From NCBI GenBank assembly GCA_041500865.1, contig JBGQMY010000002.1, forward strand, positions 1,982-65,981: a stretch of 64,000 nt of DNA, read 5' to 3'. How positions within the stretch are numbered: the first letter of the stretch is position 1; each line of letters starts with the position of its first letter. This document shows, in pieces, positions 22,590 to 58,328 of the stretch. This stretch comes from Candidatus Micrarchaeia archaeon. Lineage in GTDB: Archaea > Micrarchaeota > Micrarchaeia > Anstonellales > J096. Below the pieces are notes generated by a model. It had not been told where the DNA came from and did not search any database. It saw only the letters and a program-made list of their open reading frames with translations. The position numbers were made by a program, and so were the translations under genes.

Positions 22590-22636
22590 GGTTATCTCTC
22601 CTTGCCTGGATTTTAAAAATGAAATGGTTGAAAAAA

Positions 22637-22790
22637 TCAACCCTTGAATTTGTACTGCCTGCCGCTGCCGCCCCCTTCCCTCAGGAAGAAATAGTATATG
22701 GCGACTATTATGGCTGCTATCGCCACGATGGCCAATAGCGCCGCGGCCAGCACGCCGACCCAGTCAAGCGGCTTTGGCGGCTGCGCCTGT
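22637..22790 (-). other. C-terminal membrane anchor of the giant protein. TM helix plus basic tail, no PGF motif.
   Basis: LDWVGVLAAALLAIVAIAAIIVAIYYFFLREGGGSGRQYKFKG. Confidence 0.65.
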
Positions 22791-25700: not shown

Positions 25701-28700
25701 TTGGTCGTAGGCGAGGCAAACCATATCTGCGGGACAGTCCTGTCAACGGTCACGTTCCTGGTCTCTGTGCTGTTGGAGCGGCCGACCATGTCGTACGCCG
25801 TTGCGTTGAAGTAATACGTGCCTTCTGCAAGGCCGCTGAAGTTCGCAAGGAAGCTGCTTGAGTTGGACCATGTCTGGTTCCTGAGCGCACCGCTCGCGTT
25901 GTACAGCCTGACGGTCACGTTCGCGAAGCTTGAATCATTAACACTGACGTTCGCGATTATGCTGTTCGCAAACGAGGACGAGTTCGTTGACGGCGTTGCA
26001 AAGCGTATCGCCGGGTTTGTCGTGTCCACCGTGAAGTTCACGCTGGCTGTCGAGACGTGGCCGACCATGTCGGTTGACCACACCGTAAGGGTGTTGGCTC
26101 CCTCCGTGAAGGTCCTGTTTACAGGAACCATGTAGGTCTCATTGGCCGTCCCGTTGTAGAACCAGGTCGTGTTCAGGTCTGCATCAGTCACGTTTATGCT
26201 CACAAGCACCGTTGAGTTGCTGTATGCCGTGGCTGCCGGGGATATTATCGTTATGCTTGGCGCTATGGCGTCAAGCGTGACGTTCCTTGTCTCGGTCTTG
26301 TTCGTCCTGCCTGCCCTGTCGTAGACTGTTGCGTTGAAGAAGTACGTGCCATCCCCAAGCCCAGTGACGTTAAGGAATGCCGGGCTGGCAGTTGAGGTCT
26401 GGTTCCTTACCAGCGCGCCTGTTGAGTTGTATACCCTTATCGTGACGTTGGCGAGGTTGGTGTCATTCGCGCTTACGTTTATCTCTATAAAGTTGTTCAA
26501 CGAGGCTGTCACGTTAGTGGTTGGCGCAACAAATGATATTTCGGGGTTTATCGTGTCAACGGTGAATGTCCTGTTCGTTGAGTTGATCCTCCCTGCGGAG
26601 TCGTTCACCCAGGCATACATGCCATAGGTGGCATCGCTGAAGTTCCTGGCAAACGGCGTTCCATTGTATGTTTCATTGTCCGTGCCGTTGTAGAACCAGA
26701 CCGTGTCCTTGTTGGCGTCTGTTGCGCTTATGTTCACCAGTATCGTTGCATTGGTGTAATAAGCCAATGACGGCGACATTATCGCTATTGCCGGGTTTAT
26801 CGTGTCAACAGTGAAGTTCCTTGTTTCGCTCACGACCGTGTTGTTCGCGTCGTCCGTGCAGTTGACATACCATGTGCGGAGCGCGTTGCTGAAGTTCCTT
26901 GTCAGGTTGTACTGCGATGCGTTTGAAACCGCTACTGTTGCGTTGAGCGTGCCGTTTATGTAGATTTTGCACGTTATGCTTGTGTCAACATTGTCATCCG
27001 GCGTGAATGAGAGAGTCACATTGGTAGTTGGAGAGAAGCTGCCTGCGGCTGGCGCATTGAGCGTTATGTTTGGCGGCACTGAGTCAACAGTGAAATTGAC
27101 GCTTGCCGTTGATACGTGCCCGACCATGTCGTTCGCCCAAGCCGTGAGCGTGTTTGCTCCCTGCTGGAATGTCCTTGTGACGGGCGTTCCGTTGTAGGTT
27201 TCGTTGTCCGTTCCGTTGTAGAACCAAGTCGTGTTAAGGTCGGCGTCAGTGGCGCTTATGTTGACCCATATCGTCGCATTGGTGTAATACCTTGCCGTCG
27301 GGCTTATTATTGCCAGGGTTGGCGCGACCGTGTTGAGCGTGACGTTCCTTGTCTCGGTCTTGTTGATCCTGCCTGCCCTGTCGTATGCCGTTGCGTTAAA
27401 ATAATAGACGCCGTCGCTGAGGTTGGAGTAGTTTGCGAACACCGTAGCGGACGATGAGCTGAACGTTGAGTTCCTCAGCCCGCCGGTTGAGTTGTATAGC
27501 CTTACCGTGACGTTCGCGAAGTTGCTGTCATTAACTGAGACATTCGCCAAGACATAGTTATTCAGCGAGAATGAGACATTCGTGGTTGGCGCGACAAACG
27601 CTATTGCCGGGTTTACCGTGTCGACTGTGAAGTTCCTTGTCTCGGTCTTGTTGAGGTTCCCTGCGCTGTCAAACGCCGTTGCGTTGATGTAATAGATGCC
27701 TTCGGCAAGCGACGTCTCGTTGGCAAACAGGTTTGTCAGGGTCCCTGACGTGTTGAAATACAGCCCAGTGGAGTTGTAGAAGAATATCGTTACGTTCCTG
27801 AAGTTTGCGTCGCTGGCCGTGACGTTCACAAGGGCGCTGTCCCTGTTCAGGTATGCGCTAGAGTTTTCCGTAGGCGACTTGAAGATTATTGTCGGCTTTA
27901 TCGTGTCGACCGTGAAGTTCCTGGTTTCGCTGACTGCCGAGTTGTTCGCGTCGTCCGTGCAGTTGACATACCATGTGCGGAGCGCGTTGCTGAAGTTCCT
28001 TGTCAGGTTGTACTGCGACGCGTTTGAAACCGCGGCCGTTGCGTTGAGCGTGCCGTTTATGTAGATTTTGCACGTAATGCTGGTATCCACGTTGTCATCC
28101 GGCGTGAATGAAAGCGTCACGTTTATTGTATTTGAGAATCCTCCTGCAGCAGGCGCATTGAGCGTTATGTTTGGCGGGATTGAGTCTACGCTGAAGTTAA
28201 CGCTGGCTGTCGACAGATGCCCAATCAGGTCGTTTGACCACACAGTAAGCGTGTTTGCCCCTTGCTGGAATGTCCTTGTGACCGGGGTGCCGACAGCATA
28301 AGTCTCGTTGGCCGTGCCGTTGAAGAACCACGTTGAGTTGTCAGAGTCGGTTACGCTTATGTTCACCAGTATGGAGGCGTTGTTGTATAGCTTGCTCGTA
28401 GGCGATATTATGGTTATGCTTGGCGCTGTCGCGTCAATCGTGATGTTCCTTGTCTCTGTTTTGTTTGCCAGCCCTGCCAGGTCATATACGGTTGCGTTGA
28501 AATAGTACAGGCCGTCGCTGAGGTTGGTATAATTTACAAAGACGCTGCCTGGGCTGCTTGAGAACGTTGAGTTTCTCAGCCCGCCGGTCGCGTTGTAGAG
28601 CCTTATCGTGGCGTTGGCGAAGTTCGTGTCGCTGGAGCTAATATTTATTGCAACATAGGCGTTGAGCGAATACGCCGAGGAGTTCGGCGTCGGAGTTGTG

Positions 28701-31700
28701 AATGTTATTGCCGGGTTTATTGTGTCAACAATGAACGTCCTGTTTGTTGAGTTTGTCCTGCCGACTGTGTCGTTGGCCCATGCGGTCATGTTGTACACGC
28801 CGTCCGTGTAGTTAAGCGTTACTGGTCCCGCGTATGTCGTGTTTGCAGTGCCCGTCCCGTTGTAGAACCGCACCGTGTCCAGGTTTGCGTCGCTTGCGCT
28901 TATGTTTATCAGCATGTTGGTCCCGTTTGCGTAATATGCCTGCGAAGGCGACACTATGGATATCGCCGGGTTTGTCGTGTCCACAATCACGTTCCTGACC
29001 CCGGTTGCGTTGGGATTCCCCGCAAGGTCGGAGCAGTTTGCGAAGTAGACGTGGGTGCCGTCGCTGAGGCTGGCCAGCGTGTAGTTGGCCGTCGTGTTTC
29101 CGTCGGAGTTGTGTATCTGCATCGCATATGAGGATGGCAAGGCCGGAATCCTGATGTTGCCGAGGATGTAATTGGCTGACATTCCATAAGTGTTGTCGCC
29201 GTAGCAGGTGGAGTTGCCGTTTGACAACAGATAGCAGGTATGGAAGACGCCTGCTGAAAGCGCAATGGCTTTTCCTCCTGTGTAGTTGGTTGCTTCACCT
29301 GGACCGTTGCCATTGAAGCCGTAGCATGTTGAGTTGCCGTTGCTGAGAAGGTAGCAGGTGTCCAGGTTGCTTGCAGAGACTGCAATGGCGTCGCCACCCG
29401 TGTAGCTGGTTGTTTCGCCATTGCCGCTGTCATAGCCGTAGCATACGGAGTTGCCGCTGCTGAGCACGTAGCATGTGTGGTCCTGGCCTGCAGCAACCGC
29501 GATGGCGTCGCCGCCGGTGTAGTTGGTTGCCTGGCCGGCGCTGCCTACGCATGGCGTGTAACCAAGGCAGTTGGCGTCGCCGTAGCATACGGAGTTGCCG
29601 CTGCTGAGCAGGTAGCAGGTGTCGTAGTCAGTTGCAGAAACTGCGACGGCGTCGCCGCCTGTATAACTGGTCGACTGGTTCGAGCTGTCGTCGCCGTAGC
29701 ATACGGAGTTGCCGTTGCTGAGCACATAGCATGTGTGCTTATATTCCGTTGAGACCGCGATGGCGTTGCCGCCTGTGTAGTTTGTCGACCTGCCGTCGGT
29801 GTTGGAGCCGTAGCATACGGAGTTGCCGTTGCTGAGCACATAGCATGTGTGGTATTCGCCCATGGCAACCGCGATGGCGTTGCCTCCTGTGTAATTTGTT
29901 GCCTCACCGTTGCCATTGAAGCCGTAGCATTTGGAGTTGCCGTTGCTGAGCACATAGCATGTCTGATAAGTGCCTACCGAAATCGGCGCGTTTGAGGACG
30001 CCCTTCTCTGCGCGTCCATTGTGAGCGTGCATGACTGCAGGTTCTCGCTGGAGCTGACGTTTATGGCGATGCTGCCGTTGAGATATGCTGAGGTGTTGGG
30101 CGTCGGGCTCACGAAAGCCAATGCTGGCGCCACGTTGTCTATGCTGATGTTATAGGTGCTGGAGTAGAACCTGCCGTATTCCATCAGCTCCCCGCTTCCG
30201 TCCGCAGCATATGCCACGTCTATTGTAAAGAACGAATACGTGCCGTTGTCTCCGGTCGCATAGACCTTCCAGGTGGCGTTGCACACCTTGCCCTGAGTCA
30301 TGTTGCTGTAGCAGCTGAGGTTGGACGGGTTTGACGAAGTCGTGTAGAACGGCCTTGCCCCAACGGTCGTTGGAACGACGCCCTTGTCAAGCGTTGAGCC
30401 AAGTGCATTGACCCTCGGATATGTGTAGTTGAGCGTTCCTGCGGTGTCAACAATGGGCTTTCCGCCTGTCTTCAGCATCGAATCCACCTCAACCGGAGCC
30501 GGCATCCTGCCGTAGCTCTGGACAAAGAACTGGTTTATGAGCGCGATGGCGCCCGAAACGTGCGGGGTCGCCATTGACGTGCCCTGCTTCGGCGTATGAG
30601 TGCCTGCGAAATCTGTTGCGATTATGCCCACGCCAGGAGCAAGCACGTCAAGCGTCCTGTCCCTGTTGGTAAAGCCCGCTATTGCGTCCGAGTCGTCTGT
30701 TGCGCCCACTGAAATAGCAGTGGAGATGCATGCCGGCGAGCCTATTCCGGGCACGTCAGAAAATGGGTCGGAAGCCCCGGATCCGTGGTGTTCGTTGCCT
30801 GATGCGATGACAACCGAGATGTTGCTATTGCGGGCATTGTATAGATAAGGCGTAAAGGCGTCATCATTGTCGCAAACCTTGCCGTCGCAGCTGCCATAAT
30901 TGCAATCGCTGCCGCCTATGCTTATTGATATGACGCTTATGTTATATAGGCTGGCGTTGTTTATGCACCATTCTATGCCTGCTTCGATATCGGCTTCGGG
31001 GCAGACGTCGCCGGTGCTGTCGCAGACCTTTACCATCGCGATTTTTGCGCCAGGCGCAACGCCCCTGTAAACAGAGTCGATTGAGCCGACAATGCCGGAC
31101 ACGTGCGAGCCGTGGCCGTTGTCGTCAATGAAGTTAGTGTCGTTGTTGTAGAAGTCGTATCCCCCTACAATCTTGCTGCAGTTGTGGCTCGTTATTATGT
31201 CTGCAAGCGTGCAGCTCCCGAAGTCCGGATGCGCGTAGTTTATGCCTGTGTCAAGTATGCACACTGTCTGGCCTGTGCCGTTTATGTTCCGGCCGTTTAT
31301 TGACATGTTCCATAGCTCAGTCGCATTTATGAGCGGAACTGAAACGTCAAGCATGGTATGGAAAGTCCTTGCGATGCGGACAGATGCGACGTTCGGGTTG
31401 GCCATGAGGCTCTTTATGCCCGCAAGCGTCGCAGTCCCCGAGAAGCTGTTCACTGTGGAATACCTGTACTTAACCTTGAAGTCGCCCGAAGAAAGCGTTG
31501 AAATCACGGCAGACTGCACCGAATATACGTTTTCCCTTGTCTTGAGGCTTGCAGCCGGCTCCTTGAGCGTCACGATTACTTCAACCGGGCCGTTCTTTGC
31601 CGCGGAAAGGATGTCCTTGGGCGTCTCGTTTGCGCCCGCCATTATCGGGTCAAGGACCGCGGCAACAGCCCCGCACGGGCCGCCGACGCAGGTCACGGAT

Positions 31701-34700
31701 GCGCTGATGTTGAACGTGGCGTTGTCTTTCATGCTGCTCCTTGTCACGTTGGTTATGTTCGCAACCAATATGCCCTGTTGCTGGACATAGAGATTATACG
31801 TCCCGGCATCACCGTAAAGCTCATCGACCTCAACGTAGTACGTGGCGGTTTCCGGTGCCGTGAACCAGATTTCGCTGTTCCTGTTGATTGCGAATATTAT
31901 GTCATCGCTATATCCCAGTATTGTGCCGGTTGAGTTGTAAAGCTGCATCTGCGTGTCCGTGATTGAGATGGCCGTAAGGTTCTTGGTCCATATGAAATAT
32001 GTATATCCATTTATCGCGTTGAATTTCACGAAGTCTATATCCGTCGGGGTGTTGAACGTGTGCGTCTGCGGCACGCCGGTCGTATTTATCCAATTCGCGC
32101 TGGCGTTGTCGTTGTCCGGCTCGTATGCGTCCGGGCTCAATGGCGCTATGGTGAAGGTTGTCCTTGATGTCGCGTTGTTGCCAGGTTCCGGATATGCGAA
32201 GTCGTATGCAGTCACATTTAACCTGTAGTCGCCCTGGGTGAGCGTCGTTGTGTTGCGCAGGCACCTCAACGTTTCGCCGTTCGGGGCCAATGCGGTGCAG
32301 TTCGCGGTGTTGCTGGTGACGCTCCCGTTTGTCGCATTGTAAACGTATGTCGTTGCGTTTATTGATATCAATATCAGGCTGGGCGCAGTCCCTGTGCCGT
32401 TGACAGTGATGTTCATTATGAAAGACGTTATGTTGGTTGAATAGCCGTCTGCTGGCTTTACGAGGGTTATCACAGGGCTGACGTTCTCCGTGACATTGTA
32501 GCCTGAGAATCCGGAGACGTTGAACGTCAGCGTCCCCGCAACCGCGTAAGTGGCGCCAGAAAGCGAGCAGTTTGTGCCGAGTGTGCGGCATCCTGCATAT
32601 CCGGCAAGGGAGCATATGCCGTTGGAGGATGAATTTATTGAGCATGAGGTTCCGTTGACGTAGCAGTACCCGGTATGCAACTGGCACGTGCCAGTGATTG
32701 GATATGTGGAGCATTTTTGGGTTGTGGCATTGACCGAGCACGTTCCGCCGTTCAGGGTGCTGGAGTTGTAGGTTGTCCAGCTTGCCACATGGACAGAGGA
32801 CTGCTTTGGCGAATCGTCGGCGTATATGCCTGGCTGGGAAACGAACGGCAGGTTGTAGAGCCTCACTGTCGCGTTCGTGTCCAGCTCCACGAAATAGTCC
32901 GTGTCTATGAAAATCCTTGACTGCTCGAACGTGTCGGGCGCCCCTATGTCCACGGTTATCGCAGAGCCAAGGTTGCTGAGCTTGTCCGCGCCAGACCACG
33001 TGGAAATGTTGACGGAGGTGAGGTTTATCAGCGCTGCGCTTGAAAAGTTCGTGCTTGGGCTCAGGCCTCCGCTTGCGCAGGACTCGTTCATCTGTATGTC
33101 TATGATGAAGTTGACCCTGCTGAAGTCAAACACCTTGGTGAAGTTGGTCGTGAGGTTGCCGAAGCGGGTGCACGGGTTGCCAGTCATGTTTGGCACGCCT
33201 ATGTCCTGGAGTATGATTTCAACGGGAGTCATGTTCCATTGGCTGAATTCATCCGTGGCGATTACCCATACCATCCTCTGATTGACGGGGCCGGGCTGTG
33301 CGTACTGGCCTATGCTGCAAGAGCCGTTCCACAGGCCCGTGGCATGGTTGAAAGTCAAATTCAGGATGCCGCCGCAGGCGCTCGCATTGACGTCCGAGAA
33401 GTTAGCGACGACGGATGTGATGTTGCCCTCGCCGGTCGCGTTAACAGAAAGGTTGATTATGGCGTCGTATGGCGAGAAAAAGTTGTCAGGGTTGAGGATT
33501 TGGACGTCCGAGACCGGAAGCTGGCTGCTGAGGTTTGCCAAGACGCCCCATGCCATGGCATGGGCGTTGACATGGTCATCGGCCTCAAAGCCAATCCGGT
33601 ATTCGCCGTCCGGGTCTGCGCGCACAAGCGGGATGTTGGATGACGAATTTACCGGATAGATGGTTATGTTGGAGTTGTTGAACGGGACTTTCTGCGCTGT
33701 GCTCAGGTTGAGGTATATCCTCTGCGGCATGAATTTGGTCTGGTTGTTGGCATTTATGATGCTGGTGGTGCTGAGATTGCAGCCGTCCATGCCGCACCAT
33801 TGCTCGCTCGCTATGCCCAATAAGGTTGCATTCTGGCCGTTGGACATGGACGTATTGTAGATGAGCCACCAGTTGTAGGGCTTTGTGCAGTTGTTATCCT
33901 CCCCGCAGGAGAAAATGAAAGTGCCGTTGCAGTCCCAGGGCGCGGTGTCGTTGATTTTCAGGCAGCCTGGCACTGATGCAGTGGGGCTGTCGTTGCCAAG
34001 CGCGAGAAAGTAAAAATTGTAATAGGCCGAGACGTTCTCGCCATTGAGCGTGTAGGTCTCCTGGCTCCATGTCGTGTTGTAGGCGCCGCTGGCTGGAAAG
34101 TCCCAGTTGGTCCCCTGTGTCTCGTTGCCGGACTGGCCCCACCCGGTCACTACATAACTGTAGTTGTCCAGCACGAAGGGCGTGACGCTCCACAGATACT
34201 TGTCGGTGATGTTCGCCCTCAGGAACCACGTCCTATGATAATAGAGGGAATAATTAAGGTCCATCTTGGAAACCGAAGGCGGGCTGTTGTCCACCGTGAT
34301 GTTGGGAAGCATGTCATAGCCGTATCCGCCTGGTGAAGACGCATTGAGCACTAGCGAGTAGTTTTCGCACTCGCCGGCACAATTTAACGACGTGTCCCAT
34401 GAGCAGATAGGGGAAGGGTCCGTTTCATTGCTTACGGACGCTGTGCCGTTGCATATCGTTGCGTTGTAAGCGCCGTTCCTGTAGAGCGACAGCGCCCAGC
34501 TGGTCATGTTGGGGTCGTACGCTATTCCCTCGACATCCACAACGCCGCCCACGAACTGCATTATCACGCCGCTTATGTTGTCATAGTTCCCTGTTGGGTT
34601 GGTTATTTTGACATCTGGGTTGCCGCCGTTTTCGGATATGTAGACCGGAACTGTCGCGCTGACCGTGACATTGGCGACCGAACTGCCGTAAGATGCGTTT

Positions 34701-35827
34701 GATGATGCATTGAATAAATACTCATTATAGGCCACGACCTGTCCGATGCCGTTGCCGTATATCGCCTGGTAAGTCGTCATCCACGGAGTCAGGCCGCTGG
34801 CATCGGTTGTCGCGTTCCATGCCTGCGCCCCAAGGCCGTTTGTGGCTGTGACGTTCGCGGCATTTACAGGAGCCGTTCCGTTGGAGACGTTTGCGCGGAC
34901 ATACCAGCCGATTGTGAAGTTGCTGGCCGCAACAGAGCCAAGTTGGCCAAGGCTAAGGCCGCTGATGTTGATGAACGAGTTGTTGCTTGAGGACGTGTTT
35001 GAATAAACTTGCCATGTCGTTACGTTGGCGAGGGAAACGTTGGCAATAATGTTGCTTGTCGCATAAGTAAGATGGAAGGCATGCGTAACGTTTGATATTG
35101 AGCCTCCTGTCACGGCATTGCTGCTGTCCACGGAAAATTGGATGCCGTACGTAACTTTTGATATGTAGTTGCCGCTGACTGTGTTGCTATTTGAGTTGGT
35201 GTCAAGCGCTATGCCAATCGGCGACGTGTTATTGATGATGTTGTTGGCTATTAGGTTGCTCGAGGCGCCTGGAATGTAAATGCCGAGCGTTGTGCCTGAG
35301 ATGTTGTTGTTCGTTATGTTGTTGCTTGTTGAGCTGCCGCTGGAGACGTATATTCTTATGCCGTAGCCGTAATTGTATGGGTCGTTGACTGTGGTGTTCG
35401 CGATTGTGTTGCCGGTTATGGTGTTGTTGGCATTGGTGCCTGAAACATATATGTTGATGCCGCTCTGGCTCCTGGTTATGGTGTTGTTCTGGATGGTGCT
35501 GTTGGCCACGCCGCCTGACGTGCGGATGCCGTCGCTGAAGTTCCAGATGTTGCAGTTCTTTATTGTGACGTTGTTCTTGTCAGGGATATAGACGCCATAC
35601 CTTCCGTTATCGGGGGTGACGCCGATTATGGAATATCCGCCGCAGTCAATCACGATGTTGCTTGCATTCACATATACGCAAGCGGTGCCGGTTGAGGCAT
35701 TGGCGACCATGTCGCTTGACATCGTCAGGCTGGCATTGAGGCTTTCTGAGCAGTTCGTTGCGAAGGCCAGAGACGCAAAAACGAAAATCCACGCAATAGC
35801 GTAGCGTATGCTTAGATTACATTGCAT
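22637..35827 (-). CDS. Giant cell-surface protein of about 4,396 aa. It has a signal peptide, parallel beta-helix, subtilisin-like S8 peptidase, RCC1-like propeller, about 25 Ig-like repeats, a Gly14 linker and a C-terminal TM anchor.
   Basis: Single uninterrupted ORF. Strongly Asn/Thr/Ser-rich with hundreds of N-x-S/T sequons. The ATG at 35827 is preferred over the track start at 35860 because the TATA box overlaps 35851-35857 and the paralog starts with the same MQ.NL motif. Confidence 0.85.
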   Translation of the reverse strand: MQCNLSIRYAIAWIFVFASLAFATNCSESLNASLTMSSDMVANASTGTACVYVNASNIVIDCGGYSIIGVTPDNGRYGVYIPDKNNVTIKNCNIWNFSDGIRTSGGVANSTIQNNTITRSQSGINIYVSGTNANNTITGNTIANTTVNDPYNYGYGIRIYVSSGSSTSNNITNNNISGTTLGIYIPGASSNLIANNIINNTSPIGIALDTNSNSNTVSGNYISKVTYGIQFSVDSSNAVTGGSISNVTHAFHLTYATSNIIANVSLANVTTWQVYSNTSSSNNSFINISGLSLGQLGSVAASNFTIGWYVRANVSNGTAPVNAANVTATNGLGAQAWNATTDASGLTPWMTTYQAIYGNGIGQVVAYNEYLFNASSNASYGSSVANVTVSATVPVYISENGGNPDVKITNPTGNYDNISGVIMQFVGGVVDVEGIAYDPNMTSWALSLYRNGAYNATICNGTASVSNETDPSPICSWDTSLNCAGECENYSLVLNASSPGGYGYDMLPNITVDNSPPSVSKMDLNYSLYYHRTWFLRANITDKYLWSVTPFVLDNYSYVVTGWGQSGNETQGTNWDFPASGAYNTTWSQETYTLNGENVSAYYNFYFLALGNDSPTASVPGCLKINDTAPWDCNGTFIFSCGEDNNCTKPYNWWLIYNTSMSNGQNATLLGIASEQWCGMDGCNLSTTSIINANNQTKFMPQRIYLNLSTAQKVPFNNSNITIYPVNSSSNIPLVRADPDGEYRIGFEADDHVNAHAMAWGVLANLSSQLPVSDVQILNPDNFFSPYDAIINLSVNATGEGNITSVVANFSDVNASACGGILNLTFNHATGLWNGSCSIGQYAQPGPVNQRMVWVIATDEFSQWNMTPVEIILQDIGVPNMTGNPCTRFGNLTTNFTKVFDFSRVNFIIDIQMNESCASGGLSPSTNFSSAALINLTSVNISTWSGADKLSNLGSAITVDIGAPDTFEQSRIFIDTDYFVELDTNATVRLYNLPFVSQPGIYADDSPKQSSVHVASWTTYNSSTLNGGTCSVNATTQKCSTYPITGTCQLHTGYCYVNGTSCSINSSSNGICSLAGYAGCRTLGTNCSLSGATYAVAGTLTFNVSGFSGYNVTENVSPVITLVKPADGYSTNITSFIMNITVNGTGTAPSLILISINATTYVYNATNGSVTSNTANCTALAPNGETLRCLRNTTTLTQGDYRLNVTAYDFAYPEPGNNATSRTTFTIAPLSPDAYEPDNDNASANWINTTGVPQTHTFNTPTDIDFVKFNAINGYTYFIWTKNLTAISITDTQMQLYNSTGTILGYSDDIIFAINRNSEIWFTAPETATYYVEVDELYGDAGTYNLYVQQQGILVANITNVTRSSMKDNATFNISASVTCVGGPCGAVAAVLDPIMAGANETPKDILSAAKNGPVEVIVTLKEPAASLKTRENVYSVQSAVISTLSSGDFKVKYRYSTVNSFSGTATLAGIKSLMANPNVASVRIARTFHTMLDVSVPLINATELWNMSINGRNINGTGQTVCILDTGINYAHPDFGSCTLADIITSHNCSKIVGGYDFYNNDTNFIDDNGHGSHVSGIVGSIDSVYRGVAPGAKIAMVKVCDSTGDVCPEADIEAGIEWCINNASLYNISVISISIGGSDCNYGSCDGKVCDNDDAFTPYLYNARNSNISVVIASGNEHHGSGASDPFSDVPGIGSPACISTAISVGATDDSDAIAGFTNRDRTLDVLAPGVGIIATDFAGTHTPKQGTSMATPHVSGAIALINQFFVQSYGRMPAPVEVDSMLKTGGKPIVDTAGTLNYTYPRVNALGSTLDKGVVPTTVGARPFYTTSSNPSNLSCYSNMTQGKVCNATWKVYATGDNGTYSFFTIDVAYAADGSGELMEYGRFYSSTYNISIDNVAPALAFVSPTPNTSAYLNGSIAINVSSSENLQSCTLTMDAQRRASSNAPISVGTYQTCYVLSNGNSKCYGFNGNGEATNYTGGNAIAVAMGEYHTCYVLSNGNSVCYGSNTDGRSTNYTGGNAIAVSTEYKHTCYVLSNGNSVCYGDDSSNQSTSYTGGDAVAVSATDYDTCYLLSSGNSVCYGDANCLGYTPCVGSAGQATNYTGGDAIAVAAGQDHTCYVLSSGNSVCYGYDSGNGETTSYTGGDAIAVSASNLDTCYLLSNGNSTCYGFNGNGPGEATNYTGGKAIALSAGVFHTCYLLSNGNSTCYGDNTYGMSANYILGNIRIPALPSSYAMQIHNSDGNTTANYTLASLSDGTHVYFANCSDLAGNPNATGVRNVIVDTTNPAISIVSPSQAYYANGTNMLINISASDANLDTVRFYNGTGTANTTYAGPVTLNYTDGVYNMTAWANDTVGRTNSTNRTFIVDTINPAITFTTPTPNSSAYSLNAYVAINISSSDTNFANATIRLYNATGGLRNSTFSSSPGSVFVNYTNLSDGLYYFNATVYDLAGLANKTETRNITIDATAPSITIISPTSKLYNNASILVNISVTDSDNSTWFFNGTANETYAVGTPVTRTFQQGANTLTVWSNDLIGHLSTASVNFSVDSIPPNITLNAPAAGGFSNTINVTLSFTPDDNVDTSITCKIYINGTLNATAAVSNASQYNLTRNFSNALRTWYVNCTDDANNSAVSETRNFTVDTIKPTIIFKSPTENSSAYLNRDSALVNVTASDANFRNVTIFFYNSTGLYFNTSGTLTNLFANETSLAEGIYYINATAFDSAGNLNKTETRNFTVDTVNPAIAFVAPTTNVSFSLNNYVLANVSVNDSNFANVTVRLYNSTGGLRNSTFSSSSATVFANYSNLSDGVYYFNATAYDRAGRINKTETRNVTLNTVAPTLAIISPTARYYTNATIWVNISATDADLNTTWFYNGTDNETYNGTPVTRTFQQGANTLTAWANDMVGHVSTASVNFTVDSVPPNITLNAPAAGSFSPTTNVTLSFTPDDNVDTSITCKIYINGTLNATVAVSNASQYNLTRNFSNALRTWYVNCTDDANNTVVSETRNFTVDTINPAIAIMSPSLAYYTNATILVNISATDANKDTVWFYNGTDNETYNGTPFARNFSDATYGMYAWVNDSAGRINSTNRTFTVDTINPEISFVAPTTNVTASLNNFIEINVSANDTNLANVTIRVYNSTGALVRNQTSTASPAFLNVTGLGDGTYFFNATVYDRAGRTNKTETRNVTLDAIAPSITIISPAATAYSNSTVLVSINVTDADLNTTWFYNGTANETYMVPVNRTFTEGANTLTVWSTDMVGHVSTASVNFTVDTTNPAIRFATPSTNSSSFANSIIANVSVNDSSFANVTVRLYNASGALRNQTWSNSSSFLANFSGLAEGTYYFNATAYDMVGRSNSTETRNVTVDRTVPQIWFASPTTNSSTGTPIPNIDVNLIMNDTNTMNGIITLYTPAGLYDTFNGSASGILVLAHTFNNLSDGVYYLNASVSDLAGNFNKTETRIIVIDTTAPGITLVAPENNSFPASSLVSLSFTAVDAISENMTCVVYVDGSAAGSVNAHNNTPASLSYNATETSHLWNVSCSDAANNIAVSGTDNFTVDTVSPTITIVSPLLSYYYNTSTILINISANDTNLDTVWFYTNGTNVIYTPPGAPFTLDFDDGIYNMTAWANDSAGTTVSSGRTFTVDTTAPIVAIQSPDNITIYTTANIDLNYTASDANLAYCRYMVDGGAAIGLAGCSNISSLLGISDGNHTITVIANDSAGNTANDTVFFAMNLTPESNAPNYTALEPSANINDTYRPNLSYLLNATWTDETGLDTVLVENNFSGSLVQSPFTSQAGSQFEYDTGHLAAGEYTYRWTANDTWSNLNDSMPNMSITVLMADPSAALAASPSWSGTWPYGTIVNCTGAAQVNMELYRNGTLVDSGMGFASDPQNLSAGTYEYVCNTSGNENYTNGSASNTLTIAQVSTALTFSSSAGWTPTWNNSNINVSCSGQAGLNVSIYRNGTFMASGLGYAESIANLPAGAYLFVCNISGTENYTGASASNNLTIAKAAPSISLTVNGVAGGITVNTGATVTFNGTVTTPANGHIEIWLDSAFSRSGNGNIYNSTSWSATGTHTVKLVYNATENYSSSSLSRTVTVKTSGGGGGGGGGGGGGGAALPSMAISNYTSCNSDGTANVRVTVASSGTALSGVTVYINSDDRHTAYTSGYTFSNLASGTYVVYADKDGYDSASLTVSFSCAAAGGQQNQTAGNGTQGGMSRNQTSQIPYVSNGSTRYINVTLIDVGAEYAAYQVDSLTGTITVYVGENRTVDVNGDGSLNVSIMLNNVSGNNAFAVIGAMARAAAQQGGNATHPTNVTQNVSGANITCAADNGACKIDSDCCSGSCNMSAGLCAQAQPPKPLDWVGVLAAALLAIVAIAAIIVAIYYFFLREGGGSGRQYKFKG
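23487..23530 (-). repeat. Low-complexity tract encoding Gly14 (CCGCCTCC-type repeats).
   Basis: Direct reading. A slippage-prone homopolymeric codon run in the linker before the last three Ig-like domains. Confidence 0.8.
23560..29100 (-). repeat. Intragenic tandem array of about 25 Ig-like (CARDB/PKD-like) roughly 100-aa domains. Several units are near-identical at the DNA level (approximate).
   Basis: Recurrent motifs NFTVDT(I/V)NPAI and TETRN(V/I)T(L/V)D. Segment 26.9-27.2 kb nearly duplicates 28.07-28.3 kb. Confidence 0.7.
29150..29980 (-). other. RCC1-like beta-propeller repeats in the giant protein (approximate).
   Basis: About 7 tandem units with period about 50 aa: HTCYVLSNGNSVCYG..N..G..T.YTGG.AIAV. 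The nucleotide-level repeats are visible. Confidence 0.6.
30500..31320 (-). other. Subtilisin-like (S8) serine peptidase domain of the giant protein (approximate).
   Basis: Catalytic Asp in VCILDTGIN (about 31258), His in DDNGHGSHVSGIV (about 31105), Ser in GTSMATPHVSGAIALI (about 30572). The D-H-S order is correct. Confidence 0.8.
35000..35760 (-). other. Right-handed parallel beta-helix (PbH1/NosD-like) repeat region of the giant protein (approximate).
   Basis: Repeats of the NNTITGNTIANTT / NNITNNNISGTTLGIYI type. Confidence 0.55.
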
Positions 35828-35848
35828 GGATGGGCTTTGGCTGCGCGC

Positions 35849-35873
35849 CTTTTTAAACATTAATGACGTTGGG
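35849..35873 (-). promoter_or_regulatory. Promoter of the giant gene. The TTTAAAAAG TATA element (minus sense) is 24-30 nt upstream of the ATG at 35827. The block is conserved with 37342-37363.
   Basis: Plus-strand CTTTTTAAACATTAATGACGTTG is 22/23 identical to the block upstream of the 458-aa gene. Confidence 0.6.
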
Positions 35874-35911
35874 CGACGATTAAGGCATAATTAAAGTAGA
35901 AACGTGTTGGT

Positions 35912-35922
35912 AAATCAAAAAA
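35912..35922 (-). terminator. T8 tract about 25 nt downstream of the stop of the 458-aa gene.
   Basis: Minus strand reads TAA..GGGGGGCTTTTCGCTGAACCTTTTTTTTGA. Oligo-T is the usual archaeal terminator. Confidence 0.4.
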
Positions 35923-35944
35923 AAGGTTCAGCGAAAAGCCCCCC

Positions 35945-37321
35945 TTATTTCCTTGCGGAGGGGGAAGGCCGGCCCCGCTTCGCGGCATACAGCAGCAGGG
36001 CAACAACCGCAACGATGACAATTGCCGCAACAAATATCATGACGGCTGATGCCCTGCCGGCCGCGCCGGTGTTGGAGGTTGCGTTCGCCTGCGCTGCCGT
36101 AGCATTGGTTACGTTGGTTTTGGCTCCGACCTGGCCGGTTACGTTTCCATGCGTTATTGTTACATTGTTCATACCTGGGCTTCCGGCGCCGCTCCCGCTG
36201 CCTTCGGTGTAGTTGACTGTTAAGTTTCCTGTTATGTTGCTCAGGACGGTGTTGTTGGTTTCATTGTCGGGATGTATGCCGTCCCCGTCGTCGTCATGGG
36301 TCTCATTCTCATGCACGGTTGCATTGGCGCCGTATGGGCACAGGATTGACAGCCCGTTTGTGTCGTTCGGGCCCGGCAGGGACGGGTCATTCAAGCCCTT
36401 TCCGATTCCGGCATCGCGCAGCGCCAGGGCAGGAAAGGGGACTGCGTTCCCTTCCTTGCCGCGGCATTCTGCAGAGCCGTTGCTGAAAAGGACGCACCTG
36501 AATGAGCCGCCTGCCGCTGCAAGGCTGCTGTTGAGGACAAGGATGGCCTGGCGCCTGCCCGCTTCGGGTGATGGCACGGTGCTCGTGATGTTGAGGCGCT
36601 TGTCAAAGCTCTCCGTCCTGGAGATATAATTGATGCCAAGGAAGCAGGAGCGCGTGTCATTGTCCAATATCAGGTTTACTGTCACATTGGCGTACGGCAG
36701 GCCGAATGGGCACAGGGGCGCCAGCATGGATGAGATGTTCGGGTCAGGCTTGGAGCCAGGCGAACCTTTTTCCAGCAGATGCGAAATGCCGGAGATGAGC
36801 TGGTCGGGGGCAGGCTTTCCATCCTGTTCCGCGCCGTTGCATTTTGCGGTGCCGTTGGGGTCTATCGGCGGGTGTTCCTGCTGGCCTGAGCCTTGGCTGC
36901 CGCCCCCATCTTGATTGCCTGCTCCGGAGCCGTTGGTGAAAAGCTGGCACGTGAATGAGCCGCCCCCTTCGGAAAGGCTTTTGTTGAGCATCATGACGAA
37001 TTGCTTGCTTTCATCGCTGATTGAGGCATTGGGCTCGCCTCCTGTGATGTTAATTAGTTTATCAATTTCCAGCTGGCTGGAGACGTAATTGACGTCAAGT
37101 GCGCAGTAATGGGCATCGTAGTCCGCTATAAGGCTTATTGTGACATTGGCGTAGTTCATTGGGCCATTGGGACCGGTGCCGTTTTGGTCGCCGCCGTTGT
37201 GCTGGCCGCCTGTGCCGTTCTGGTCGTCTCCGCCCGGAGGCCCTGACGGCTCTGCGAACGCCATTGAGGCAAAAACAAGCATCCACGCGATGGCGCAACA
37301 CACGACAAGATTAGACTGCAT
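35945..37321 (-). CDS. 458-aa secreted surface protein with two internal Cys-containing repeat domains, many N-glycosylation sequons and a C-terminal TM anchor. Paralogous signal peptide and anchor to the giant protein.
   Basis: N-terminus MQSNLVVCCAIAWMLVFASMAFAEP versus giant MQCNLSIRYAIAWIFVFASLAFATN. C-terminus VMIFVAAIVIVAVVALLLYAAKRGRPSPSARK. Two roughly 130-aa repeats (YANVT..L..D.D...C.L..NY.S......DK..NIT ... GGSF.C.LF.NGS). Confidence 0.7.
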   Translation of the reverse strand: MQSNLVVCCAIAWMLVFASMAFAEPSGPPGGDDQNGTGGQHNGGDQNGTGPNGPMNYANVTISLIADYDAHYCALDVNYVSSQLEIDKLINITGGEPNASISDESKQFVMMLNKSLSEGGGSFTCQLFTNGSGAGNQDGGGSQGSGQQEHPPIDPNGTAKCNGAEQDGKPAPDQLISGISHLLEKGSPGSKPDPNISSMLAPLCPFGLPYANVTVNLILDNDTRSCFLGINYISRTESFDKRLNITSTVPSPEAGRRQAILVLNSSLAAAGGSFRCVLFSNGSAECRGKEGNAVPFPALALRDAGIGKGLNDPSLPGPNDTNGLSILCPYGANATVHENETHDDDGDGIHPDNETNNTVLSNITGNLTVNYTEGSGSGAGSPGMNNVTITHGNVTGQVGAKTNVTNATAAQANATSNTGAAGRASAVMIFVAAIVIVAVVALLLYAAKRGRPSPSARK

Positions 37322-37341
37322 ACGGAGTTTTGGCGTTGCTA

Positions 37342-37363
37342 CTTTTTAAACATTATGACGTTG
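37342..37363 (-). promoter_or_regulatory. Promoter of the 458-aa gene, conserved with 35849-35873.
   Basis: CTTTTTAAACATTATGACGTTG. TATA is 23-30 nt upstream of the ATG at 37321. Confidence 0.6.
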
Positions 37364-37399
37364 CGGGTTAATAGATGTCAGTATATGTTTGAAACGCCG

Positions 37400-37867
37400 T
37401 CATCCGGCAACGCACTCGCTGAAGGATACTATGAATGAGTTGGATGCTTCCTTTCTCATCAGATCATACAGTAATGGCATGGATTCTAGGATATTTCTGA
37501 TTTTGTCGTGCCTTGATTGCGAGGCCATGCTTAATGGGGTCCAGCCGTCATTGTTCTTTGCCTCGATGCTTGCTCCTTTTCCGAGCAGCAAGGCGCAGGT
37601 TTGGGTGTGTCCGTTCCTTGCGGCATGCATGAGCGGAGTCATGCCGCTGCCGCCTTTTGCCTCTATGCTTGCGCCAAGCTTCAGCAGCGTTTCAATGCCT
37701 GTATTGTCGCCGCTCTCTGCGGATTCCAGCAGTTCATTGTTGAGCCGCCTTTGCCCTTCTGCCGATAATGCCGGATTCTTCAATGCCGGCTTTTCGCTGG
37801 GCATGATGTCTGCTTTCAATTTAACTGGTTCTGTTGCCGGATTGTTTTGGAGCGTCTTTTCCTGCAT
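37400..37867 (-). CDS. Ankyrin-repeat protein. Likely start MQEKTLQNNP. C-terminal tail ..FIVSFSECVAG.
   Basis: ANK repeats. The track start at 38020 is upstream. The ATG at 37867 is preceded by TTTGCCGCACAATA (shared with the 5749 paralog) and a TTTTTAATT box. Confidence 0.75.
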   Translation of the reverse strand: MQEKTLQNNPATEPVKLKADIMPSEKPALKNPALSAEGQRRLNNELLESAESGDNTGIETLLKLGASIEAKGGSGMTPLMHAARNGHTQTCALLLGKGASIEAKNNDGWTPLSMASQSRHDKIRNILESMPLLYDLMRKEASNSFIVSFSECVAG

Positions 37868-38090
37868 GTATCTATTGTGCGGCAAAGCAATTAAAAACAG
37901 CGCGCAGCGCCCTAAATGCCTTCTTTTGAACCCAAGGGCCTTTTCTTTCCCCAAGTGCTTTCTTTTTCCAATGCGCATCAGCGCCAAAAGCAGGGGGGCG
38001 GGAGGAGCTTGGAACTGCACAGTTTCGTGGGCCGTCTTTTATGCCAAAGGCAAAACAATGTGGGTATTGCCTGCTGGCCCACGACACTGT

Positions 38091-38106: not shown

Positions 38107-38115
38107 TTGGTTCAG

Positions 38116-38189
38116 AGCCTCAGGTGGGATTTGAACCCATGACCTCTCGCTTACGAGGCGAGCGCTCTACCAGGCTGAGCTACTGAGGC
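38116..38189 (-). tRNA. tRNA-Thr(CGU), 74 nt, no intron.
   Basis: The reverse complement gives GCCTCAG-TA-GCTC-AGCCTGGTA-GAGC-G-CTCGC-CTCGTAA-GCGAG-AGGTC-ATGGG-TTCAAAT-CCCAC-CTGAGGC-T. Anticodon CGT. One A-C mismatch at 49-65. TTTTTAAAA box about 30 nt upstream, shared with the divergent ZIP gene. Confidence 0.75.
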
Positions 38190-41070: not shown

Positions 41071-41549
41071 GGGTCTTGATGGACGCGAAGGACGCAGCCG
41101 TTGTCTTAGGGGCGATAATACTGGCCGCATGCCTTTACTGGTATTTTTATTACTACACGGCAAGCAGGGACTACTTCTTCGGCAGGGCGGACGTTTCTTA
41201 CGCTGACGCGAACGCGCAGCTGCAGTCCGCCGGGTCGGTATGCATCGTGGAGAACATAAGCGGCGTGCCTGACCCGGCAAGGATGAACATCATGAACTGC
41301 GGCATAGACTTCGCGGCATCGCTGGGCGGCATAAAGGGCGTGGACGCATACGTGCTTGAGGGCGAGAACTGCACCAGCATGTCAGGGCTGCAGGCAATCT
41401 CCGGCTGCGCAAGGGAAATCCACACCAAGGGATGCTACATCCTCTATATAGGGAGCAACGAAACCGGGCCGAGGACTCTGGACGGCCTTACATACGTCCC
41501 GGTAGGCAGTGTTTACCAGAACATGAGCTGCTCAATAAAGGTAAGCTGA
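41067..41549 (+). CDS. Small Cys-containing membrane or secreted protein. Its start overlaps the upstream gene by 4 nt (ATGA).
   Basis: TM helix VVLGAIILAACLYWYFYYY and 8 Cys. Start/stop overlap suggests an operon with the 39058 gene. Confidence 0.4.
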   Translation: MRVLMDAKDAAVVLGAIILAACLYWYFYYYTASRDYFFGRADVSYADANAQLQSAGSVCIVENISGVPDPARMNIMNCGIDFAASLGGIKGVDAYVLEGENCTSMSGLQAISGCAREIHTKGCYILYIGSNETGPRTLDGLTYVPVGSVYQNMSCSIKVS

Positions 41550-46081: not shown

Positions 46082-46112
46082 TTTTTAAACACTTATTCAC
46101 ACAGTAAGCGCA
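46053..46112 (+). repeat. Copy 1 of a roughly 60-bp direct repeat (3' end of the DUF655 gene plus the TTTTTAAACA promoter plus the ankyrin ATG).
   Basis: GTGACGCAGCCGCCGAAGGAAGCAATCTGATTTTTAAACACTTATTCACACAGTAAGCGCATGG. Confidence 0.8.
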
Positions 46113-46732: not shown

Positions 46733-46812
46733 GGCATATGCAGAGACTGCGGCGTACCTCAAGTCCTTGGAAACCAAGAAAGAATAGAAATGTCCGTTTT
46801 CAGGACATTTGT

Positions 46813-55861: not shown

Positions 55862-55947
55862 GGGTTTTTATAGCTAATCCGGTTTTTTGGGGGGTTTTTG
55901 TGTGTTTTATATAGTGTTTAAAAAAGGTTCCGTGCCATAGCCAGACT

Positions 55948-58326: not shown

Positions 58327-58328
58327 CC

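Follow-up and report, generated by a model that had tools for sequence, protein, structure and literature searches.

On the minus strand of the stretch of DNA analysed here (64 kb from a Candidatus Micrarchaeia archaeon, hereafter the window), the gene for a 4,396-aa giant surface protein (22637..35827) lies beside that for a 458-aa small surface glycoprotein (35945..37321), and the two genes begin in much the same way. The question raised by this locus is what the common beginning signifies. The original prediction saw in it a dedicated expression-and-sorting cassette, whereby promoter, signal peptide and anchor are reused on unrelated passengers genome-wide; such a cassette would mark out a regulon, or else a special route of secretion or anchoring, for an S-layer-like or adhesin family. 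We consider it probable, taking the reading as a whole, that the pair are tandem partial paralogues encoding membrane-anchored, heavily N-glycosylated surface proteins of the Micrarchaeota (DPANN).

The common promoter and signal peptide

Both genes have the same 5' layout, namely CAACGTCAT(T)AATGTTTAAAAAG, a spacer of 21-22 nt, the ATG and a 23-aa signal peptide. The promoter block reads CAACGTCATTAATGTTTAAAAAG on the giant gene side (35849-35871, minus strand) and CAACGTCATAATGTTTAAAAAG on the 458-aa gene side (37342-37363, minus strand), and a single indel, without any substitution, separates the two. These sequences had been reported correctly, but the end coordinate of 35873 given for the first was 2 nt too far. 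Only two matches to the block were found in the 64-kb window, those of the two genes, where none was expected (100 shuffles).

Within the block, the TATA-like box TTTAAAAA is located at 35850..35857, 22 nt upstream of the giant gene ATG at 35827, and at 37343..37350, 21 nt upstream of the ATG of the 458-aa gene. At least eight genes in the window have the same box 21-23 nt ahead of the ATG, as do 11 of 11 cluster genes in six related assemblies, on which grounds the block was very probably read correctly as a promoter. TTTAAAAA is the generic leaderless TATA-type promoter of the genome, and only CAACGTCAT is specific to the pair within the block; hence, about half of what had been presented as a pair-specific 23-nt block is general promoter consensus. 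The 9-mer CAACGTCAT occurs twice in the window (35863..35871 and 37355..37363, minus strand), at an equal offset from the TATA box, and is a candidate regulator site or extended promoter contact. As the TATA box lies 21 nt upstream of its ATG, the 458-aa gene would therefore produce a leaderless or near-leaderless mRNA, and transcripts of this kind are proposed for both genes, each having a TATA promoter close to the archaeal consensus, 21-22 nt before the ATG. A more upstream start for the giant at 35860 (MFKK...) was set aside, as the reading frame from that point runs through the TATA box and the NCBI gene call is 35827; the equivalent ATG in the 458-aa gene meets a stop codon after four codons. 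Oligo-T runs are established transcription termination signals in archaea, and on this basis the T8 run at 35917..35924 (minus strand), 20 nt downstream of the 458-aa gene stop, is a probable terminator. It probably separates two transcription units, so that each gene would form its own.

The signal peptides, aa 1-23 in each case, are MQSNLVVCCAIAWMLVFASMAFA in the 458-aa protein (37253..37321), ending in an A-F-A cleavage-type motif, and MQCNLSIRYAIAWIFVFASLAFA in the giant (35759..35827). They scored 59 and 51 bits, respectively, against a signal-peptide HMM for which every non-cluster ORF fragment scored 10 bits or less, and no third copy was found in any frame of the window. Their sequences were quoted accurately in the original prediction, but to call them near-identical was an overstatement, as 15 of 23 residues (65%) are the same (pairwise blastp, E 1.5e-5). 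The h-region is long, with approximately 18 residues, and the n-region of the 458-aa protein carries no positive charge; judged by sequence, the segment could instead be an uncleaved N-terminal anchor.

At the DNA level, similarity extends from the CAACGTCAT element to the last signal-peptide codon only (114 nt, 74%; blastn, E 1e-11), and pairwise blastn and blastp detected nothing else significant between the two genes beyond this 5' module. Promoter and signal peptide thus form one homologous module on two adjacent surface-protein genes, as had been proposed. In our reading this module of about 115 nt would be common to both genes by descent and would comprise four parts: the CAACGTCAT element, the BRE/TATA region, the initially transcribed region and a Sec-type signal of 23 aa ending in A-F-A. 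Among the 13 degenerate codons for identical residues in the signal peptides, seven have changed synonymously. About half of these synonymous sites have changed, yet no substitution is seen in the 22-nt block, which must therefore be under constraint at the DNA level.

Protein architecture and C-terminal anchors

The 458-aa protein has 27 N-glycosylation sequons and 10 Cys, and matched no Pfam or NCBIfam family. Its folded part consists of two copies of a Cys-containing module of about 80 aa, defined by module alignment and HMM: aa 57-135 (36917..37153), ending in the RCC1-blade-like motif GGSFTCQLFTNGS, and aa 210-288 (36458..36694), ending in GGSFRCVLFSNGSAECRG. The repeat is also seen in the DNA, where 36917-36988 and 36464-36535 are 76% identical, and the module gave profile-library matches to RCC1-like repeats. 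An Asn/Thr/Gly-rich, sequon-dense linker or stalk follows (aa ~331-417; 36071..36331; predicted disordered, pLDDT <50), and then the C-terminal transmembrane (TM) helix (aa 425-447) with its basic tail KRGRPSPSARK (35948..36049).

The giant contains 300 sequons and 81 Cys. It is built from the signal peptide, Asn-rich repeats, an S8 subtilase domain, seven RCC1-like blades, many Ig-like (Big_13) domains, a Gly14 run, a Cys-rich knot and a C-terminal TM anchor (helix at aa ~4354-4382, tail REGGGSGRQYKFKG; 22640..22768). The subtilase domain (aa 1517-1768; 30524..31279; PF00082, E 5e-39) retains an intact triad, D1526/H1572/S1751, with the motifs DTG, HGSH and GTSMA. The RCC1-like beta-propeller repeats (aa ~1929-2232; 29132..30043; Pfam RCC1_2, E 2e-19) carry the motif HTCYVLSNGNSVCYG. 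The giant would be a subtilase/adhesin-type protein, a class with which DPANN archaea are believed to contact their hosts.

Hydrophobic segments number exactly two in each protein: the N-terminal signal and a helix at the C-terminus. Sequons occur at densities of 5.9 and 6.8 per 100 aa, compared to 0-0.9 in the cytoplasmic proteins checked. The window also encodes AglB, by which both proteins are probably glycosylated once exported through Sec.

At both C-termini, an Asn/Thr/Ser/Gly-rich stretch leads into the helix and basic tail, exactly as described in the original prediction. That description also implied a common anchor, which holds for the architecture but not for homology: the two anchors scored 1.1 bits against each other and shuffled sequences up to 7.5 bits, so that similarity is undetectable. 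A TM helix with a basic tail is a generic type-I topology. The tripartite look recalls PGF-CTERM proteins, the substrates of archaeosortase A, in which a Ser/Thr-rich linker, a hydrophobic helix and basic residues make up the C-terminus. Unlike these, however, neither protein has PGF in its last 60 residues or another conserved motif before the helix, neither matched an NCBIfam C-terminal sorting-domain model at E<=0.1, and members of the small family differ by indels in the region preceding the helix. The stated absence of PGF-CTERM was therefore borne out, and with it the lack of an archaeosortase-type signal; a special anchoring route does not follow, since a plain TM helix, which is well known, is the simplest reading for both proteins. 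The anchor would then be an ordinary C-terminal helix with a positively charged cytoplasmic tail, and probably not an archaeosortase-type lipid. For a reusable cassette, these results cut both ways. The two window anchors are unrelated and the sorting-signal models found no match, but the anchor profile of the small family does match the C-terminus of a giant-type protein, P0039 (25.3 bits; shuffles <=9), showing that this anchor type also occurs on a giant.

Related loci and the origin of the small gene

Among species-representative genomes, the nearest are MAGs of Candidatus Micrarchaeia/Micrarchaeota, in which aRF1 is 86% identical. The syntenic order is aRF1, a 160-aa protein, a 670-aa protein, Zip, tRNA-Thr and the cluster. 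The tRNA-Thr(CGT) gene (38115..38189, minus strand) is a conserved landmark upstream of the cluster in related loci, identical in sequence in L003, L009 and L018. Small genes number none in L009, one in the window and L006, and two in L003 and L017. Across six related Micrarchaeia assemblies, whose proteins have diverged to 63-86% identity, each of the 11 genes in the syntenic cluster carries the 5' module. Five of the assemblies have it on both gene types and the sixth has it on the giant; in L009 it is carried by the giant alone. CAACGTCA is retained in 7 of the 11 cluster promoters. In L003 and L017, the T-rich sequence CTTTTT(T)GATTTAC, which bears on the proposed terminator, is likewise retained ahead of the giant gene. 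Elsewhere in the window, an ankyrin gene pair shares a 117-nt repeat (81%), so that tandem paralogues with a common promoter and 5' end recur.

Some modules appear to be mosaics. The second small gene of L017 resembles the giant type in its upstream (65-67%) and initially transcribed (82%) regions and the small type in its signal peptide (79-81%). The small and giant signal-peptide DNA of L006 are 88% identical, compared to 63-69% between the L006 small gene and other small genes. These identities refer to short segments of 21-69 nt, under an alignment scheme in which unrelated sequence scores about 40-50%, and they suggest recombination or gene conversion between modules. Such signs, together with the ankyrin pair, would also suit a neutral leftover, an undecayed trace of recent tandem duplication or gene conversion with no further functional meaning. 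We regard this as quite unlikely, as the module persists on both gene types across assemblies whose proteins have diverged so far, the promoter block is unsubstituted where signal-peptide synonymous sites have changed, and the spacing from TATA box to ATG is held at 21-23 nt in every copy. Under the paralogue reading, similarity would be kept by purifying selection, which acts on the functions of promoter and signal peptide, and also by recombination or gene conversion that now and then takes place between adjacent copies.

The passengers, which had been taken as unrelated, are in part related. The small-family profile gave full-module matches to the giant proteins P0010 (E 2.5e-25) and P0046. 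The module HMM matched aa 423-501 of the L003 giant over its full length (20.4 bits, i-E 5e-6; 200 shuffles <=5.4 bits), just ahead of the RCC1 propeller in a giant that adjoins small genes. The window's own giant has the blade part of the module only: its RCC1-like propeller is the sole part of its passenger resembling the 458-aa protein, with weak scores of -0.6 to 8.8 bits per blade for HMM positions 62-81 and matches of 18-25 residues (blastp, hhalign). The 458-aa gene is probably a cut-down copy of a giant, the direction from giant to small resting on the 20-bit module match and one outgroup locus. The giant 5' end and an internal module of pre-propeller plus first RCC1 blade were probably copied to found the small gene family; the module would then have been duplicated one to three times, with zero to two gene copies across related genomes.

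These relationships also weigh on the cassette reading. The CAACGTCAT element goes beyond generic BRE/TATA and is conserved in most cluster promoters, and other secreted proteins encoded in the window have different signal peptides, an example being MKKLFALLAVLFITASFG on the 670-aa protein; P0010, a giant from a more distant organism, has a signal peptide that is diverged yet similar. Nevertheless, all 11 known carriers lie in one syntenic tandem cluster, and scanning 214.7 kb, of which about 75 kb is from the source genome, with nhmmer and a signal-peptide HMM revealed no other carrier. Beyond the L005/L008 copy, which was already known, promoter-pattern scans of public collections yielded only one 1.4-kb contig that appears to be unrelated. 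With the passengers partly related as well, we consider a genome-wide cassette unlikely.

Comparison with known surface-protein systems

SlaB of the Sulfolobales is a type-I membrane-anchored archaeal surface glycoprotein with a stalk. Both proteins resemble it in having an N-terminal Sec signal, glycosylation outside the cell and one TM anchor at the C-terminus, but they showed no relationship to it in sequence and none that was reliable in fold, and the 458-aa protein lacks a coiled-coil stalk. If the 458-aa protein were a SlaB-like membrane stalk, the 5' module would ensure its stoichiometric co-expression with an S-layer partner. Its architecture of signal peptide, folded modules, glycosylated stalk and C-terminal TM helix would suit this role, and the describers of a Micrarchaeota S-layer protein suggested that anchoring may need a second protein with a TM stalk. 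However, neither protein matched an S-layer domain, and the Cys counts of 10 and 81 go against the criteria quoted for that S-layer protein, which many-Cys proteins do not fit. The giant has its own TM anchor, L009 has no small gene at the locus, which would be odd for an essential envelope part, and the small family is tiny, with six cluster representatives among 5.8 billion proteins. The S-layer role suggested in the original prediction is thus unsupported, and we consider it very improbable.

The vpma genes of Mycoplasma agalactiae and vsp genes of M. bovis are multigene surface families with a conserved 5' untranslated region and signal peptide (PMC2268961). As in the present cluster, these clustered surface genes have highly similar upstream and signal-peptide coding regions with divergent mature parts, gene number varies among related genomes, and recombination acts on the common 5' region (PMC2268961). 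They differ in encoding bacterial lipoproteins with a lipobox, which is absent here, and in relying on a single active promoter, repositioned through inversions that Xer1 mediates at the conserved 5' region (PMC2268961). Here, each gene has a complete archaeal promoter, all genes share one orientation, no recombinase gene adjoins the cluster and only one to three genes are present.

Giant DPANN surface proteins include the SPEARE proteins of Nanohaloarchaeota (PMC6642349) and the large PKD/beta-propeller surface proteins of the micrarchaeon Mia14 (PMC5498576). According to the available text of these reports, the present giant is like them in being very long and mostly extracytoplasmic, with a serine protease, adhesion-type Ig-like domains, a beta-propeller and a TM segment near the C-terminus, in a host-dependent DPANN lineage (PMC6642349, PMC5498576). 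SPEARE proteins are defined there by a conserved cytoplasmic restriction-endonuclease-like region and laminin-G domains (PMC6642349), whereas our giant has a 14-residue cytoplasmic tail and Pfam matches without such domains. The same text reports no small partner gene with a common promoter and signal peptide (PMC6642349, PMC5498576).

In the present pair, the shared upstream element would give both genes common, strong expression. The shared 5' module is real, and it is a fairly ordinary outcome of tandem gene duplication.

Shared promoter block and signal peptide of two adjacent genes

Two adjacent genes on the minus strand, a small gene encoding a 458-aa protein (35945-37321) and a giant gene encoding a 4,396-aa protein (22637-35827), are tandem partial paralogues and surface glycoprotein genes of a Micrarchaeota genome, in an arrangement of an already known kind. 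The window also encodes the archaeal markers TBP, aRF1, L21e, FtsZ and AglB, and among species-representative genomes those closest to it are Candidatus Micrarchaeia/Micrarchaeota MAGs (aRF1 is 86% identical to that of JBGQMB010000006.1). At the DNA level, the two genes are similar at 74% over 114 nt (E 1e-11), from the 9-mer CAACGTCAT to the last codon of the signal peptide, and no significant DNA similarity was detected beyond this stretch between the small gene, the giant gene and their flanks.

The original prediction described near-identical 23-nt promoter blocks in front of both genes. The wording is apt for the blocks themselves, CAACGTCATAATGTTTAAAAAG (37342-37363, minus strand) upstream of the small-gene ATG and CAACGTCATTAATGTTTAAAAAG (35849-35871, minus strand) upstream of the giant-gene ATG, which differ by one indel and zero substitutions; the end of 35873 quoted for the latter lies 2 nt too far. 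A gapped pattern of the block had exactly two matches in the 64 kb and none in 100 shuffles. Leaderless archaeal promoters of the TATA/BRE type carry an A/T-rich box centred approximately 26-27 nt before the transcription start site (TSS), with the start codon at or near the TSS and no Shine-Dalgarno sequence. In silico, the end of the TTTAAAAA box lies 21-22 nt from the ATG in both genes, and no GGAGG-like motif is present in either of these spacers. In at least eight genes of the window, a TTTAAAAA or TTTATAxA box ends 21-23 nt ahead of the ATG, and relaxed matches to AATGTTTAAAAAG are enriched, at 8 against 1.6 expected; the 3' half of the block is therefore the generic BRE/TATA consensus of the organism. 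The part particular to both genes is the 9-mer CAACGTCAT, which occurs twice in the window at an equal offset from the TATA box. Given the distance that usually separates TATA box and TSS in archaea, we infer that the generic half is positioned for a transcript that would start at or beside the ATG. A T8 run (35917-35924) is located 20 nt past the small-gene stop codon, and the conservation of its context in relatives argues for two transcription units that are probably separate.

A longer ORF of 4,407 aa for the giant gene, with its start at 35860, was rejected as it reads through the TATA box. The in-frame ATG responsible is inside AATGTTTAAAAAG (35858-35860), and ORF finders as well as at least one public annotation begin there with 'MFKK...'. 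The 'MFKK...' start of P0004, a database protein entry, is the same TATA-box artefact, L006 10001 being a further site concerned, and such mis-starts constitute a systematic annotation risk for leaderless genes of this lineage.

In Sec signal peptides of class 1, a positively charged n-region precedes the hydrophobic h-region, and the c-region has small residues at -3 and -1. The h-region of both predicted signal peptides is long (~18 residues) and positions -3 to -1 read A-F-A; the n-region has one Arg in the giant protein and no charged residue in the 458-aa protein. The N-terminal 23 residues of the two proteins are identical at 15 of 23 positions (blastp E 1.5e-5), i.e. significantly alike, but calling them near-identical was an overstatement. 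No third copy of the signal peptide exists in any reading frame of the window. The proposed module for expression and export, consisting of promoter block and signal peptide, is indeed common to both genes. Among the degenerate codons for identical signal-peptide residues, 7 of 13 differ at synonymous sites; the duplication must therefore be old, and the 22-nt block, in which substitutions are absent, is under constraint at the DNA level. A conserved RNA structure of the 5' coding region was also considered as the cause of the conservation and was rejected (-6.7 kcal/mol, covariation term -0.23).

Another minus-strand gene (16971-21470) encodes a 1,499-aa protein without a Pfam match, which has an N-terminal signal/anchor, a second TM near aa 218-245 and long charged/coiled regions. 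Its promoter, ATGTTTAAAAA ... GGCAAAAGC ... ATG with 22-nt spacing, is similar to the generic portion of the promoters discussed here.

Anchors, domains and probable origin of the small protein family

Signals of the PGF-CTERM/archaeosortase type, represented by TIGRFAM/NCBIfam models, consist of PGF (or PEF, VPXXXP etc.) directly before a C-terminal TM helix and a basic cluster. In both proteins, one hydrophobic helix lies at the C-terminus, with basic residues after it. PGF is absent from the last 60 residues of both and no NCBIfam C-terminal sorting model matched either protein at E<=0.1, in agreement with the original prediction. The special non-archaeosortase anchoring route that it went on to propose found no evidence, and a plain TM anchor is the simplest reading for both proteins. 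The C-terminus of the giant protein scored 1.1 bits against the anchor profile of the small family (best shuffle 7.5 bits), and homology of the two anchors in the window was rejected; the anchor said to be shared by this pair is an analogy of generic type-I topology. For P0039, a giant-type protein found elsewhere, the same comparison yielded 25.3 bits (best shuffle 9.0 bits). At the family level, anchors do move between small and giant proteins. The giant protein also has a Gly14 run at aa 4096-4109 and, directly ahead of the TM helix, a Cys-rich knot (CAADNGACKIDSDCCSGSCNMSAGLC) at aa ~4320-4345.

N-glycosylation sequons are abundant in both proteins, with 300 in the giant protein (6.8 per 100 aa) and 27 in the 458-aa protein (5.9 per 100 aa), against 0-0.9 per 100 aa in the cytoplasmic proteins of the window that were checked. 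Subtilases of peptidase family S8 are recognised by the S8 domain together with an Asp/His/Ser catalytic triad. The giant protein matched Peptidase_S8 (PF00082) at aa 1517-1768 (E 5e-39, 134.7 bits vs a cut-off of 21.8) and its triad is intact, with the motifs DTG (1526), HGSH (1572) and GTSMA (1749); other Pfam domains include RCC1_2 repeats, many Big_13 Ig-like domains and one CarboxypepD_reg-like domain. The protease is located mid-protein (aa ~1380-1770 region), behind a segment that by eye resembles a subtilase propeptide, and this position and segment suggest that the protein may cleave itself into an N-terminal part and a C-terminal part that stays anchored in the membrane. A gene for a Peptidase_M48 (HtpX-like) membrane protease (21630-22640, minus strand, E 8e-36) starts right at the giant stop codon, such that the two reading frames meet or have a few nt in common; both genes could be transcribed together, and the protease might process the giant membrane protein or control its quality.

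The 458-aa protein consists of two ~80-aa Cys-containing modules (a 76% DNA repeat), a sequon-rich linker and the anchor, and had no Pfam match at E<=0.01. RCC1 proteins are described by the RCC1/RCC1_2 repeat models, and about seven blades form a propeller. Each module of the 458-aa protein has one blade-like motif, and with just two in total the protein cannot form a propeller alone. AlphaFold2 modelling from a 6-sequence alignment gave a mean pLDDT of 50.6, the modules (~70 pLDDT) being predicted as beta-beta-beta-alpha-beta. A Foldseek search of this model against the PDB gave no match at E<=0.001, with TM-scores of ~0.1-0.27; the model was poor, and its fold matches (MHC-like platforms and others) were regarded as meaningless.

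The original prediction held that the passenger domains of the two genes are unrelated, and this is contradicted by the relatives. A search of 1.84 billion representatives with the small-family profile retrieved RCC1-like repeat proteins through GGSF.C.LF.NGS..C.G (positions ~250-277) and also aligned over the whole module with the giant-type proteins P0010 (E 2.5e-25) and P0046. An HMM of nine modules matched the giant protein of the related locus L003 at full length (aa 423-501, 20.4 bits, i-E 5e-6; 200 shuffles scored <=5.4 bits). This giant gene adjoins the small genes of its locus, and the module match directly precedes its RCC1 propeller. In the giant protein of the window, the HMM matched the blade part alone, weakly, at seven blades, and hhalign of the small family against its RCC1 region gave an 18-column match with a probability of 12.6%; the link to the giants therefore rests on the giants of the relatives. 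The small family looks as if it arose by truncation from a giant gene, of which it would have kept the promoter, the signal peptide and the pre-propeller module. Two observations fit this origin: in the more distant locus L009, the giant is the sole carrier of the module, and a diverged version of the same signal peptide occurs in P0010.

Related loci and probable recombination between copies

Five other cluster representatives of the 458-aa protein were found in 5.8 billion proteins, and none of the six representatives has a Pfam domain. The contigs of the small-family representatives, together with one locus reached via aRF1, made up six related assemblies with a common neighbourhood of aRF1, a 160-aa gene, a 670-aa gene, a Zip transporter and tRNA-Thr, followed by the cluster. 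The 670-aa and 160-aa proteins (39058-41549, plus strand, in the window) have no Pfam family, and their genes separate aRF1 from the Zip transporter in every related locus; the larger of the two is secreted or membrane-bound, and its Lys-rich signal peptide (MKKLFALLAVLFITASFG) differs from the cluster type. A giant gene accompanies no small gene in L009, one in the window and in L006, and two in L003 and L017, while L018, a 1.9-kb contig too short to show a giant gene, has at least one small gene. In all 11 cluster genes, a T[TC]T[TA]AAAA box precedes the ATG by 21-23 nt, and the encoded signal peptides follow the pattern ...A(I/F)AW..(V/L)FAS(M/L)AFA.

An nhmmer model of the shared 5' unit and a signal-peptide HMM, searched against 214.7 kb of Micrarchaeota DNA, recovered the 11 cluster genes and no other carrier, the next-best matches being at E 0.11 and 10 bits vs 43-59 bits for the true copies. 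Scans with the promoter pattern gave 0 matches in species-representative genomes and 2 in JGI metagenome contigs (one was the already known L005/L008, the other a 1.4-kb contig whose ORFs have no resemblance to the cluster); both collections are evidently without the source genome, and the scans are silent on its genome-wide copy number. In the 5.8-billion-protein database, a word-indexed search with the signal-peptide profile gave three 24-25-bit matches and missed known positives, and a concatenated signal-peptide query gave zero candidates, missing even exact 23-residue matches. Local HMMER with the same profile recovered all 11 positives (E down to 6e-19 at full database size), therefore the word index was at fault and both database searches are uninformative, not negative. 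Negative results of word-indexed protein searches are untrustworthy for short hydrophobic N-terminal queries.

Segment-wise identity matrices pointed to mosaics in two loci. In the second small gene of L017, the far-upstream region (65-67%) and the initially transcribed region (82%) are of the giant type, but the signal peptide (79-81%) is of the small type. In L006, the signal-peptide DNA of the small and giant genes is 88% identical, and each is just 63-75% identical to its own orthologues. We read these mosaics as probable recombination or gene conversion between neighbouring modules, although the segments are short and unrelated sequence scores ~40-50% in the same scheme. A more far-reaching reading, which we consider improbable, is that the shared 5' module, in some genomes together with a shared C-terminal anchor, would serve Micrarchaeia populations as a recombination handle to add, delete or reshuffle small surface-protein genes derived from the giant adhesin/protease gene, as an archaeal equivalent of the antigen variation on bacterial surfaces, geared to contact with the host, with CAACGTCAT as the site of a dedicated co-controlling regulator. 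If this were true, the small-gene counts of 0, 1 and 2 and the promoter/signal-peptide mosaics of L006 and L017 would be footprints of the process. In the vpma/vsp systems of mycoplasmas, a conserved 5' UTR and signal peptide are found on divergent clustered surface genes, and a recombinase and inversions drive switching (PMC2268961). The genes here likewise share a conserved 5' region; unlike vsp/vpma, however, they all have the same orientation, with a separate TATA box for every gene, and the cluster has no recombinase next to it but the Zip transporter, an ankyrin gene, tRNA-Thr and the M48 peptidase.

The nearest transposase-type gene is an IS605 OrfB, ~6 kb away. This IS605-family OrfB/TnpB (Cas12f-like) gene (43491-44684, minus strand) lies between the L21e and TBP genes, which are adjacent in the syntenic L006, and is therefore a lineage-specific insertion.

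Two tandem ankyrin-repeat genes (46112-46732 and 46871-47290, plus strand) share a 117-nt direct repeat (46049-46165 and 46808-46924, 81% identical), which includes their first codons and the TATA box (TTTTTAAA, plus strand) ~22 nt ahead of the ATG. That this pair also shares promoter and 5' end underlines the phenomenon as an ordinary product of tandem duplication. Ankyrin-repeat genes are unusually many for a small archaeal genome (64-528, 1579-2517, 5003-5767 on the minus strand, 37400-37978 on the minus strand, 46112-47290 and ~52100-53300), and several end in an F..(F/V)REC..-like tail (FLSDVRECVS, FYSAFRECTGA, FLSDFRGCIGA, FIVSFSECVAG). A defence-type island (~54800-64000) and locus L015 contain AbiEii/AbiEi toxin-antitoxin pairs, a TaqI-like restriction enzyme, and N6/N4 and C5 DNA methylases.

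Comparison with known surface proteins and significance

The Micrarchaeota S-layer protein (SLP_Mh type) is a ~101 kDa protein with S-layer domains (TIGR01567-like and related) and few sulfur-containing residues (10.1101/2021.04.28.441871). The pair in the window is different, as neither protein matched any S-layer family in Pfam or NCBIfam and their Cys residues number 10 (458-aa protein) and 81 (giant protein); the S-layer role originally suggested thus lacks evidence. Known giant, mostly extracellular DPANN proteins that combine protease and adhesion domains with a TM segment close to the C-terminus are the SPEARE proteins (PMC6642349) and the Mia14 surface proteins (PMC5498576). A conserved restriction-endonuclease-like region in the cytoplasm together with laminin-G domains characterises SPEARE proteins; the giant protein, by comparison, has a cytoplasmic tail of 14 residues, no such domains among its Pfam matches and no nuclease region.

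The locus reveals no new anchoring or secretion mechanism. Its defined promoter and signal peptide are of potential use for expression work in Micrarchaeota. Archaea of the DPANN group spend their lives attached to hosts, which they would recognise first of all through their surface proteins; to our knowledge, almost none of these proteins has been characterised. The locus is a concrete, conserved example of a small uncharacterised glycoprotein family that probably came from a giant subtilase/adhesin gene, of a predicted strong leaderless promoter with a gene-specific upstream element, and of a surface-gene cluster with signs of local recombination between its copies.
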